This document shows positions 1 to 62,165 of a stretch of 64,000 bases of DNA, one piece after another (the first letter of the stretch is position 1; each line of letters starts with the position of its first letter). Origin of the DNA: Eledone cirrhosa (Eukaryota); assembly GCA_964016885.1 (NCBI GenBank), contig OZ024744.1:111228001-111292000 (forward strand). The letters run 5' to 3'. The notes beneath the pieces were generated by a model. It saw only the letters and a program-made list of their open reading frames with translations. It did not search any database and was not told the DNA's origin. Both the position numbers and the translations under genes were made by a program.

Positions 1-927
1 TACTCAGTACATTACTGGTATGAAATAACATACCAGAAGTGTTAATATAAGAATCTGATTTACTTTATTCTACTAAAGATAATTGTTTCTACTTTTGGCA
101 CAAGGCCAGCAAATACCCAGTACATTACTGGTATGAAATAACATACCAGAAGTGTTAATATAAGAATCTGATTTACTTTATTCTACTAAAGATAATTGTT
201 TCTACTTTTGGCACAAGGCCAGCAAAATACTCAGTACATTACTGGTATGAAATAACATACCAGAAGTGTTAATATAAGAATCTGATTTACTTTATTCTAC
301 TAAAGATAATTGTTTCTACTTTTGGCACAAGGCCAGCAAATACCCAGTACATTACTGGTATGAAATAACATACCAGAAGTGTTAATATAAGAATCTGATT
401 TACTTTATTCTACTAAAGATAATTGTTTCTACTTTTGGCACAAGGCCAGCAAATACCCAGTACATTACTGGTATGAAATAACATACCAGAAGTGTTAATA
501 TAAGAATCTGATTTACTTTATTCTACTAAAGATAATTGTTTCTACTTTTGGCACAAGGCCAGCAAATACCCAGTACATTACTGGTATGAAATAACATACC
601 AGAAGTGTTAATATAAGAATCTGATTTACTTTATTCTACTAAAGATAATTGTTTCTACTTTTGGCACAAGGCCAGCAAAATACTCAGTACATTACTGGTA
701 TGAAATAACATACCAGAAGTGTTAATATAAGAATCTGATTTACTTTATTCTACTAAAGATAATTGTTTCTACTTTTGGCACAAGGCCAGCAAAATACCCA
801 GTACATTACTGGTATGAAATAACATACCAGAAGTGTCAATATAAGAATCTGATTTACTTTATTCTACTAAAGATAACTGTTTCTACTTTTGGCACAAGGC
901 CAGCAAATACCCAGTACATTACTGGTA
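1..927. repeat. Tandem array of a 113-114 bp unit (8 full copies plus a partial; runs off the window start), made of a SINE 3' tail plus flanking DNA
   Basis: Units start at 1, 114, 228, 341, 454, 567, 681, 795 and 908 and are nearly identical. The segment ATAATTGTTTCTACTTTTGGCACAAGGCCAGCAAATACCCAGTACATTACTGGTA is the reverse complement of the SINE 3' end seen at ~1303-1358. Confidence 0.95.
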
Positions 928-1904: not shown

Positions 1905-3856
1905 ATCCATTTCCTTTGCATATCCAAAGGTAGGGTGACTATTCTACTACTTGATAGACTGCCAGTGACTAGTATGTGCCCTATTTTGCTGAATATTTTT
2001 AGCATTTTAGTCATATTCCTGATGATTCAGCTGCTTTCCCTGCTTTCATACCTTTAACCACACCTTAAACTGTCTAGTTGTGAACCAAAACAGTTGCTTA
2101 CCCATCGTTCTCCTTACTCAACAACTTCTTATGGTATAATTGCATGCCTGCTTCCAGTGTGACAGTGAAGTACAGAGTTATATCATATAAACTTTCCCTA
2201 ACAATGTCTTGTTTTGCAGTGATATACTGCTAATTAATACAGAACAACTCATATCTCTGACATTCGTGTCTCAGAACATTGTTGAAACTCTTACTTTCTG
2301 CTTCTCTCATTGCTATTCATAACTGATAAATACATGATATCCTTCTTTACTCTGCCACTTTCTTCCAATCTTTCTAAGCCTATCTCTTAACTTTTTATAG
2401 CTCTATCCACTGTACCATTCCATCTCCACATAATCTATCTGGTACTTTGCTACATCTATAAACTTGGTATGTGGTCTGCTGCAGGTTGTCTTGAAGAAAC
2501 TCCTTAGTATTTTCTACGTTATAATTCTCTATCGTCTCCACCTTTTCATCATACATGTTACATAGTAATTCTTTGAACGTACACCTCACTGAGATATCTT
2601 TCATCGTCCATGCATTTCTTCTCCAGATTGTCTAGTGTCTCAATGTCACTCACTAATCACTAGTCTATGTTGAATAGTACATTCAACCATCTGTCTATCA
2701 TATTTCCTGATCTACATGAAGTTTATTTGGCTTGTATATTTACTTGTTTGGTAGGTGACCAGGTGGTTAGCTGACTGGTACCGCTTCTGAAGCTGCTGCT
2801 CTACATCTCACAACTCAAAAAGATTTGATCATTCTTTATTCCTTGTACCATGTCTGTAATTTCCATGTACATTGGAGTAGCCAACCTGATGTTACCCAAA
2901 TATTATCCATTAAAGTCACCAGCTTTGGTAACACAGTTGTTCTTAGTTGTTGTGAAGGTAAGGTAGGTTACAAAAACAACTCAAAATATACCATCGGCTG
3001 GCAAGGTTGTCTGCAAGAGATCTTCACAGAAATTGTCCTTTTGTGCATCATTATGGTGCATCGGCAGACATTACTGTTACAGTTTTATTGCCAGTGACTA
3101 CTCCAAGCTCAATTCCTCAGTTTATTTCGCTGTTGACAATAGAGTTATTCCACCGGCAATTCCAGGACGATTAGTCTTCTGTGAGGAACGCTAAACTCTT
3201 TCGTTTCTTGGCTTTAGCTTGCGTTCATTTTGACCCTCCTCTCTCTCTCTCTCTCCCTCTCTCTCTCTCTCTCCCTCTCTCTCTCCCTCTTCTCTCTCTC
3301 TCTCCAGTGACTACTCCAAGCTCAATTCCTCAGTTTATTTCGCTGTTGACAATAGAGTTATTCCACCGGCAATTCCAGGACGATTAGTCTTCTGTGAGGA
3401 ACGCTAAACTCTTTCGTTTCTTGGCTTTAGCTTGCGTTCATTTTGACCCTCCTCTCTCTCTCTCTCTCTCCCTCTCTCTCTCCCTCTTCTCTCTCTCTCT
3501 CCAGTGACTACTCCAAGCTCAATTCCTCAGTTTATTTCGCTGTTGACAATAGAGTTATTCCACCGGCAATTCCAGGACGATTAGTCTTCTGTGAGGAACG
3601 CTAAACTCTTTCGTTTCTTGGCTTTAGCTTGCGTTCATTTTGACCCTCCTCTCTCTCTCTCTCTCCCTCTCTCTCTCCCTCTTCCCTCTCTCTCTCTCCA
3701 GTGACTACTCCAAGCTCAATTCCTCAGTTTATTTCGCTGTTGACAATAGAGTTATCCACCGACAATTCCAGGACGATTAGTCTTCTGTGAGGAATCTCAC
3801 CCCACTCCATCTCTTGTACACATCTACACACCTATACTCCTGGATTTCTACCAGCA
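1905..3856 (-). pseudogene. Decayed non-LTR retrotransposon (RTE-like LINE) ORF2: APE endonuclease, linker and start of RT domain, with many stops and frameshifts
   Basis: Minus-strand fragments occur in the correct order: LVEIQEYRCVDV / CVQEMEWG / RFLT (~3787-3855), GIAGGITLLSTAK*, VTVMSADAP, QKDNFCEDLLQTT (~3005-3085), AGDFNG (2906-2923), NHLVTYQTSKYTSQINF (~2720-2768), EAESKSFNNVLRHECQR (~2255-2305), KKLLSKEND, VKGMKAGKAAESSGI (~2015-2061) and KMLKIFSKIGHILV. ORF 2395-2604 in the track is a piece of it. Confidence 0.8.
3091..3794. repeat. Tandem array of a ~197-213 bp unit (3.5 copies): ~98 bp of LINE endonuclease DNA plus a spacer ending in (CT)n
   Basis: Units begin CCAGTGACTACTCCAAGCTC at 3091, 3304, 3501 and 3698. 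Length differences lie in the (CT)n tract. The LINE sequence resumes at 3795. Confidence 0.95.
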
Positions 3857-60863: not shown

Positions 60864-60895
<32 letters not shown>

Positions 60896-60897
60896 TA
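60854..60897. repeat. (TA)n microsatellite
   Basis: Direct reading. Confidence 0.95.
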
Positions 60898-61241
60898 TCC
60901 CGGATTCAATCGGGGGTAACCACAGTAAGTAAGGTATTCAATACAAAGCAGAGTATAAATATTTAATATAGAAAAGCTTCTACAGTACTAGAACTGTTTC
61001 ATTCGTGAGAAATCATCAGGAAGCTGACTGTCCAAGTAAATATGGTGGTATTTATATCTTTTCTGGTGGTAGGAGAGGGTCGGGATTGGGATGGGTTGAG
61101 GTCATTGATTGATGGGTTTAAAGAAAAGGGAATTCTTTAAAAGCTATAATTAGAGTAACAAAGGCAGAAAGGGGTTCCACTCCTTATTTTTAAGGTTCTC
61201 ATAAGCTAACAATGACTATTATTCAGGTGTCTACAAGCACA
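60898..61241 (-). mobile_element. 3' remnant of a Penelope-like retroelement (ORF end, 3' UTR/pLTR with hammerhead)
   Basis: The minus strand encodes ACRHLN (CRH at 61235-61227), reminiscent of the CRHxN C-terminus of Penelope GIY-YIG ORFs. A UTR and a hammerhead (61025-60975) follow, and the element terminates at (TA)n. Confidence 0.55.
60975..61025 (-). ncRNA. Type I hammerhead ribozyme motif (complete three-stem form)
   Basis: Minus strand: AGCTTC-CTGATGA-tTTCtcacGAAt-GAAA-CAGTtctagtACTG-TA^GAAGCT. Stem I is a perfect 6 bp, all core nucleotides are canonical, stem III is 4 bp plus the A-U pair, and the cleavage triplet is GUA. Confidence 0.85.
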
Positions 61242-61312
61242 TTCACACACACACACACATATATATAAAGACCCTACTCCCACACACTCGCAAAAACAAA
61301 CTCTCTTATACC

Positions 61313-61432
61313 CATATATATATATATACATGTATATATATACATATACAGTATATATGTATACATGTATATATATACATATATATATATACATATATAT
61401 ATACATATATATATATACATATATATATATAC

Positions 61433-61892: not shown

Positions 61893-62083
61893 ATAATTGT
61901 TTCTACTTTAGGCACAAGGCCAGCAATCACCCAGTGCATTACTGGTACTTTATTTTATCGACCCCGTAAGGATGAAAGGCAAAGTTAACCTCGGCGGAAT
62001 TTGAACTCAGATTGGAAAGGGCCGTAACTCTATGCATCAAAGCATGGCGTCCGAACCTCTACCGATACTGCCAATCCACCGCC
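61893..62083 (-). mobile_element. tRNA-derived SINE (same family as left-flank copies), full length
   Basis: The reverse complement contains the A box TGGCAGTATCGG, the B box GAGTTCAAATTCC, the central domain and the tail AAAGTAGAAACAATTATAATAA. Confidence 0.9.
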
Positions 62084-62165
62084 CTTATAGGTTCGGTTTG
62101 TTTGTTTGTAAACAAACAAACAGCCCGGATTACGCCGTACATATACATATATATATATATATATT

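Follow-up and report, generated by a model that had tools for sequence, protein, structure and literature searches.

The 64,000-nucleotide stretch of Eledone cirrhosa DNA analysed here (the window) carries on its minus strand a 51-nt motif with the appearance of a self-cleaving ribozyme, which raises the question of whether it is a genuine hammerhead, what kind of element it belongs to and how it might act there. A preliminary description made from the letters alone had proposed a complete hammerhead with canonical CUGAUGA, GAAA and GUA, a perfect 6-bp stem I and a weak 3-bp stem II with a U-U at its base, and all of these are present in the sequence. The parts of the motif, read from the sequence unless another basis is given, are listed below.

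60975..61025, minus strand: type I hammerhead ribozyme motif (sequence and stem I covariation; variation confined to loop II)
61025-61020 / 60980-60975, minus strand: stem I, AGCUUC/GAAGCU
61019-61013, minus strand: core CUGAUGA
61012/61001, minus strand: U10.1.U11.1 mismatch at the base of stem II
61011-61009/61004-61002, minus strand: stem II, UUC/GAA, 3 bp, with a UCAC loop
61000-60997, minus strand: GAAA
60997-60994/60985-60982, minus strand: stem III
60986..60993, minus strand: loop III, 8 nt, centred on a CUAG palindrome; A at 60986 is a variant, the family having C (copy comparison)
60980..60981, minus strand: predicted cleavage site after GUA, between 60981 and 60980 (hammerhead geometry)

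Positions within copies are counted below from core U4 (61018 = 0), which places the beginning of stem I at -7 and the cut between +37 and +38.

All type I core positions (C3 U4 G5 A6 N7 G8 A9, G12 A13 A14, A15.1-U16.1, H17) are found in the window copy. An Rfam scan of the window gave no match at the gathering score and the folding z-score of the 51-mer is an unremarkable -0.72, so that the case for a hammerhead is carried by the comparison of the family rather than by folding. A 35-place core pattern matches the 3.0-Gb genome exactly 3,771 times while its reversed control matches 0 times, which together with compensatory stem I changes between subfamilies shows that the motif is not a product of chance. 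The family consensus also keeps the hammerhead core, every core position being retained in 94-100% of 177 arms of genomic copies, a sample partly chosen by the core (200 arms before duplicates were removed; 26 long and 151 short). The canonical G10.1-C11.1 pair is absent from this set, U.U standing at each side in 175 of the 177 arms. As U.U occurs in 14 of the 25 published Hydra families (PMC8557442), where it is the norm of the clade, and in an active axolotl ribozyme (PMC7229834), it represents a known hammerhead variant.

The motif lies in one of about 10,000 copies of a Penelope-like element (PLE) family of the Hydra clade in the 3.0-Gb genome, the 3' half of the ribozyme giving 10,022 pattern matches and the tail pattern 9,804; a 381-base query from the window returned 4,490 candidate loci, 40 of which were scored. 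The element-level features are as follows.

60896..61313, minus strand: solo pseudo-LTR (pLTR; a 5'-truncated insertion) of a Hydra-clade Penelope-like element, 420 bp, between (TA)n tracts (boundaries common to genomic copies)
61221..61235, minus strand: stretch reading CRHLN, preceded by a (TG)n tract and part of the 3'-UTR/pLTR sequence (copy comparison and parent L171)
C1:14204000-14213000, minus strand: L171, whole parent element, contiguous with its hammerhead

The ribozyme has changed far less than its surroundings. The two main subfamilies differ at 4 of its 51 positions, and these four consist of two bases in loop II and a single stem I pair whose change is compensated. The upstream flank differs at 22 of 93 positions and the downstream flank at 8 of 76, a divergence of 11-24%, while the core, the cut triplet and the stems (stem I by way of compensation) have been kept. 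A third group of copies shows a second compensated stem I pair, although the compensated changes represent only two change events, each inherited many times. Stem I is perfect in 49 of 75 long copies (AGAUUC/GAAUCU, AGCUUC/GAAGCU or GGCUUC/GAAGCC) and imperfect in the other 26; stems II and III are invariant among copies and therefore offer no covariation. Measured against the majority of its own subfamily, the window copy departs at 1 of 51 positions in the ribozyme, 4 of 93 in the upstream flank and 2 of 76 in the downstream flank. A copy 99% identical to it, L002 (C28:112638217-112638596), lies 1.35 Mb away; the two have in common a 25-bp deletion and an upstream microsatellite, and a similar repeat adjoins them downstream.

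An intact parent of the family was found in L171, which reads in order hammerhead, a 713-aa RT/GIY-YIG ORF, a (TA/TG)n-rich UTR of about 3.5 kb and a second pLTR with hammerhead, the unit measuring 5,966 bp. Hammerhead-bearing pLTRs flanking an ORF for reverse transcriptase (RT) and GIY-YIG endonuclease form a Penelope-like arrangement, and the window pLTR is 80% and 88% identical to the two pLTRs of this element. By eye the protein shows RWR, DKT, RDD, CNCLNKEAC, a GIY-YIG region and CDLC...CMH. Against Pfam it matched GIY-YIG (PF01541) with an E-value of 0.012, below the cut-off, and gave no RVT_1 match; its protein-atlas neighbours (0.96-0.99) are PLE-like clusters with HTH_animal, GIY-YIG and RVT_1 in part of their members, and a PDB sequence search with it returned nothing below E 0.078. 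The C-terminal 200 aa gave 150 scored matches of 96-100% identity, at least 18 of them with an intact 758-codon frame. Three loci extend beyond the usual 3' end into an ORF. Decayed ORF starts carrying the window's own ribozyme type (L223, L225, L228) place the window copy in an older subfamily of the same family. The PLE fragments L018, L026, L028, L033, L043 and L058 were considered as parents and rejected, lying on the opposite strand or separated by microsatellite, whereas L171 is contiguous with the hammerhead.

This parent also settles what had been described as a CRHxN-coding remnant of a PLE ORF end upstream of the ribozyme. The reading itself is present at 61235-61221, but a (TG)n tract precedes it, the CVCV upstream being derived from (TG)n, and CRHxN occurs in just 7 of 22 copies. 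The true ORF end in L171 is CMHKN, 3.65 kb upstream of the 3' hammerhead, and the family ORF begins downstream of the ribozyme, not upstream, its start lying 174 nt after core U4. Between hammerhead and ATG the minus strand of L171 contains a candidate 62-nt intron, its start corresponding to window position 60944, with a weak GT donor, TAAC and a T-rich AG; the long 3' end described below lies within it. A 5'-UTR intron is known from Penelope (PMC2377424) and from Chlamys. At +36..+38 in L171 a UAG spanning the predicted cut is the in-frame stop that bounds the 758-codon frame, probably by chance. Long copies often break off in the microsatellite of about 3.5 kb that serves as 3' UTR, and with such a UTR the family not only targets microsatellites but also spreads them.

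As in the Hydra-clade elements described in PMC8557442, there is one ORF with RT and C-terminal GIY-YIG, targets are (TA)n, and RW[K/R] (here RWR), DKT in place of DKG, CxCx5C, CxxC and CxH can be recognised by eye, the latter two, set around a conserved E and N, being CDLC and CMH in the L171 protein. Hydra-clade endonucleases lack the CCHH motif; compared by eye with two Neptune rows, the L171 protein has Val at the first Cys position of this motif and retains a Cys 4 residues before YIG. The hammerheads of that account are likewise type I with U.U at the stem II base (14 of 25) and an ACAG/CUGU stem III. Loop III differs, having 8 nt here and 1-3 nt there, as does the unit length of 6.0 kb, which results from the 3.5-kb microsatellite UTR, the elements described there being generally <3 kb; the hammerhead of Hydra-1_oBim, the one cephalopod family listed in that source, differs from the present one. 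On sequence comparison, 61025-60975 is a genuine hammerhead; its kind and its clade are already known, and the family is new.

Other parts of the window are occupied by further repeats. A second, unrelated hammerhead at 62260-62215 on the minus strand, with a 5-bp stem II, stem III ACA/C/UGU and a GUC cut triplet, is of the minimal dimer type and probably marks the end of another Penelope-like family. An array of about 56 kb (about 3850-60300) is built of degenerate 12-bp repeats in which A and C abound and plus-strand G is almost absent; it accounts for numerous long but spurious open frames. Tandem arrays of 113 bp and 197 bp, together with copies of a SINE that we take to be tRNA-like, are spread across window positions 1-927, 1159-1557, 3091-3794 and 61900-62090. 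Elsewhere in the genome, hammerhead-like motifs with U...U around stem II at L011, L014, L026, L028 and L029 suggest several more Hydra-type families; the motif of L028 is folded back at its own stem III palindrome.

The ribozyme of the window had further been called probably monomer-active, on account of a CAGT/ACTG stem III hairpin. This hairpin is indeed present in the window copy, but its extra pair stems from a near-private mutation to A at 60986, a base that occurs in 104 of 10,022 copies; among the 30 closest loci only the window copy has it, and even L002, for all its 99% identity, has C there. In DNA contigs aligned to the element the family base makes up about 98% of the depth at this position; in the same alignment the depth falls 5' of 61020, where a 90% likeness filter removes diverged upstream sequence, and the size of the fall was left uncounted. 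The family stem III is ACAG/CUGU with the 8-nt loop UUCUAGUC. Each loop position is retained in 50-52 of 52 copies chosen by their tail and is thus kept like the core, and the CUAG at the centre of the loop favours a dimer helix. Computed for the 16-mer of stem III, with a dimer energy that takes no account of concentration, the family type favours a two-molecule helix (-12.8 kcal/mol) over the hairpin (-1.4 kcal/mol), as does the window copy (-15.2 and -3.6 kcal/mol on the same basis). When two ribozymes were co-folded, stem III was swapped between the molecules in all 4 variants tried, and stem II appeared in only 5-17% of predicted folds (6-17% for the 51-mer).

An 8-nt loop III makes a monomer fold possible, and one could picture an efficient monomer whose loop removes the need to dimerise seen in other Hydra hammerheads, where a stem III of 3 or 4 bp is closed by 1-3 nt in all 25 published families (PMC8557442). 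The minimum free energy fold of the 51-mer does form stems I and III, with a stem III probability of 0.99 for this copy and 0.51 with the family base, and PMC4209133 describes PLE hammerheads of fungi that have a long helix III and work alone. We nevertheless consider an efficient monomer unlikely, given the family hairpin of only -1.4 kcal/mol, a loop sequence conserved like the core around a central palindrome, the weak stem II with its U.U, and the rarity of copies made from cut RNA (1 of 70 ends at the cut). The axolotl hammerhead with U.U reported in PMC7229834 cleaved only 22% within one hour when alone, its dimer being far more efficient, and cleavage by the PAc hammerhead needed the PLE protein according to PMC11167929. 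The call of probable monomer activity thus finds no support for the family, in view of the hairpin and dimer energies, the private extra pair and the weakness of the U.U relative alone; we infer from these models and analogies a weak cleavage that would be aided by a dimer or by protein. The window copy, an ordinary stub with a lucky mutation, may perform somewhat better alone than the family type.

The minimal PLE hammerheads described in PMC4209133 likewise sit in pLTRs, occur as thousands of solo motifs, have a palindromic centre of helix III and led to a circle model for tandem structure; they have little or no helix III and keep G10.1-C11.1, whereas in the present ribozyme helix III measures 4 bp, helix II is short and U.U takes the place of that pair. 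The axolotl retrozyme HHR_Amex2 (PMC7229834) resembles it in the U.U at the helix II base and, being weak alone and better as a dimer, offers a functional parallel, but it resides in tandem 350-bp non-coding repeats and has a 2-bp helix III. A non-LTR retrozyme, which would consist of head-to-tail tandem repeats that each bear a type I hammerhead and lack an ORF, was rejected for our locus, which is a single copy in the window and belongs to a family with solo or head-to-head copies and an ORF-bearing parent.

Four further positions in the window relate to the predicted RNA start and to the ends of the copies.

61049..61056, minus strand: predicted TATA box TATAAATA, first T 31 nt upstream of 61025 (long-arm motif count)
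61024..61025, minus strand: predicted transcription start at the first nt of stem I, the 5' limit of most short copies (short-arm ends)
60953..60961, minus strand: short 3' end, predicted first reverse-transcription start (3'-end clusters and arm pairing)
60893..60903, minus strand: long 3' end or 'tail', predicted second reverse-transcription start, with the (TA)n target next to it (3'-end clusters; tail model of PMC11167929)

Ends were first scored in 70 loci chosen by the core, some of which overlap, and, since that sample requires the core, in another 70 chosen by the tail, all from the start of contig C1, as are the arm and pairing counts below. In the core-chosen set 54 loci have their 5' end no more than 12 nt from U4, and 42 of the 54 carry an inverted arm. 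The tail-chosen set has 28 ends at -8..0, 8 at +1..+10 and 0 at -12..-9; the remaining ends lie at -30..-13 (3), farther upstream (16), at the cut (+37..+40; 1) or elsewhere downstream (14). Of the 151 short arms, 139 stop 0-7 nt 5' of U4 and hence inside stem I's 5' strand. The commonest end points are -7 (39 arms) and -6 (29), while -8/-9 account for just 5. Solo copies and both inverted arms stop at one and the same place. For an untemplated G from a cap, 3 of 5 solo ends at -7 could be counted, inverted junctions being ambiguous in this respect. Of 31 long arms, a count that includes duplicates, 20 have the motif TATA[AT]ATA at -38..-36, about 29-31 nt above -7; the other 11 have C[AG]TAAATA at -36 (5), a shifted box (5) or none (1). 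The optimal TATA-to-start spacing in mouse is given as -31/-30 in PMC1779604. Start sites within the pLTR are known for Penelope (PMC2377424) and Chlamys, and TATA/Inr has been noted in a rotifer pLTR (PMC3846280), while the promoter of D. virilis Penelope is internal, with no TATA (PMC2377424). A literature search, with subscription journals outside its scope, found no PLE transcription start at the first base of a hammerhead. Because thousands of related copies stop at the ribozyme's first letter, the RNA of the element likely begins with the ribozyme, and most insertions likely copy uncut RNA, which was the main insertion substrate in vitro for another PLE (PMC11167929).

The same 5' limit might instead be a stop of reverse transcription, the cDNA folding back on its stem I copy or the enzyme aborting early. 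Fold-back junctions do exist (L110 and L158), AGCT/GAAGCTTC palindromes occur at many junctions, and self-priming has been proposed for inverted PLE ends (PMC3846280). Were the cDNA to fold back, the sense arm should resume 3' of the cut, as seen in 1 of 70 loci; both arms and the solo copies have one stop position in common, and the spacing of the TATA box would be a coincidence. The stop is moreover missing on the 5' side of intact-ORF copies, being found in 0 of the 17 that reach it and in 141 of 177 arms (Fisher p 3e-11, the copies not being independent). An RT stop therefore appears improbable to us as the source of the limit.

At the other side, the 3' ends of copies form two clusters near +60/+65 and +125, and (TA)n flanks most family copies. 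Inverted ends with a tail on one side, a PLE hallmark, are present: the 56 head-to-head insertions comprise 31 with a long and a short end, 1 with two long, 0 with two short and 24 unclassified. Two 3' classes paired as long and short are expected from two internal priming sites. Poseidon PAc of Anolis, as described in PMC11167929, similarly has two internal RT starts giving a tail, AT-rich targets and insertion of uncut RNA; in PAc the ORF starts within the hammerhead and the tail measures 30-40 nt, whereas in the present family the ORF start follows the core at a distance of 174 nt, with about 60 nt between the two ends.

We therefore favour, at a probability of roughly 65%, a solo-end hammerhead of a Hydra-clade PLE that likely makes up bases 1-51 of the RNA and likely cleaves slowly with the aid of a dimer or protein, a reading built on sequence, folding models and analogy. 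Polymerase II would start transcription at stem I, the RT/endonuclease would nick (TA)n, and reverse transcription would be primed 65 or 125 nt from the 5' end of the RNA. With a linear RNA left uncut as its template, the RT would run off the 5' end after 70-130 nt, which would produce thousands of tiny insertions, mostly head-to-head, with the whole ribozyme kept. Longer copies, including that of the window, would come from a template continuing past stem I. Cleavage would remove a capped 45-nt leader, and cleavage at the 3' repeat would free a ligatable unit. The imperfect stem I of 26 of 75 long copies, the 11 of 31 long arms with no canonical TATA and the TATA-less Penelope promoter count against this explanation. 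A motif that no longer cuts, kept as a protein-binding or promoter element or as a passenger, would be compatible with genomic copies that come from uncut RNA. Core mutants had no effect on insertion in vitro in PMC11167929, and PMC8557442 calls hammerhead function in these elements unclear and raises the possibility that the hammerheads parasitize PLEs. Retention of core, triplet and stems in diverging flanks, with compensated stem I changes in only two events, speaks against such a loss, and we hold it to be quite improbable.

The intact-ORF copies demand a different template. Of 20 such copies none stops at -8..0: 16 extend farther upstream, 1 stops at -9 and 3 are cut inside, so that they cannot all derive from a linear RNA that begins at stem I. 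Long copies, the window's included, imply a template continuous through stem I, which may be a circle, a read-through transcript or a strand jump. A ribozyme-made circle has been proposed (PMC4209133), and same-strand ORF pairs 4-8 kb apart exist, as would be compatible with read-through of tandem units. That the RNA starts at the ribozyme, its linear form giving only stubs of 70-130 bp, while the hammerheads at both ends cut and the unit, ligated into a circle that the RT runs round, yields the full-length copies, is a tentative possibility, less likely than not.

The role of the hammerhead in PLEs and the rebuilding of the upstream repeat are stated as open questions in PMC8557442. The present family provides a map of ends that bears on both, with a likely RNA start at the ribozyme, two priming sites, stubs, and full-length copies that ignore that start. 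If the circle reading is true, traces of the two templates stand next to each other in the genome, and active copies could not be made without the hammerhead. With at least 18 intact-frame copies, the circle, read-through and strand-jump models should be distinguishable by ordinary RNA experiments.
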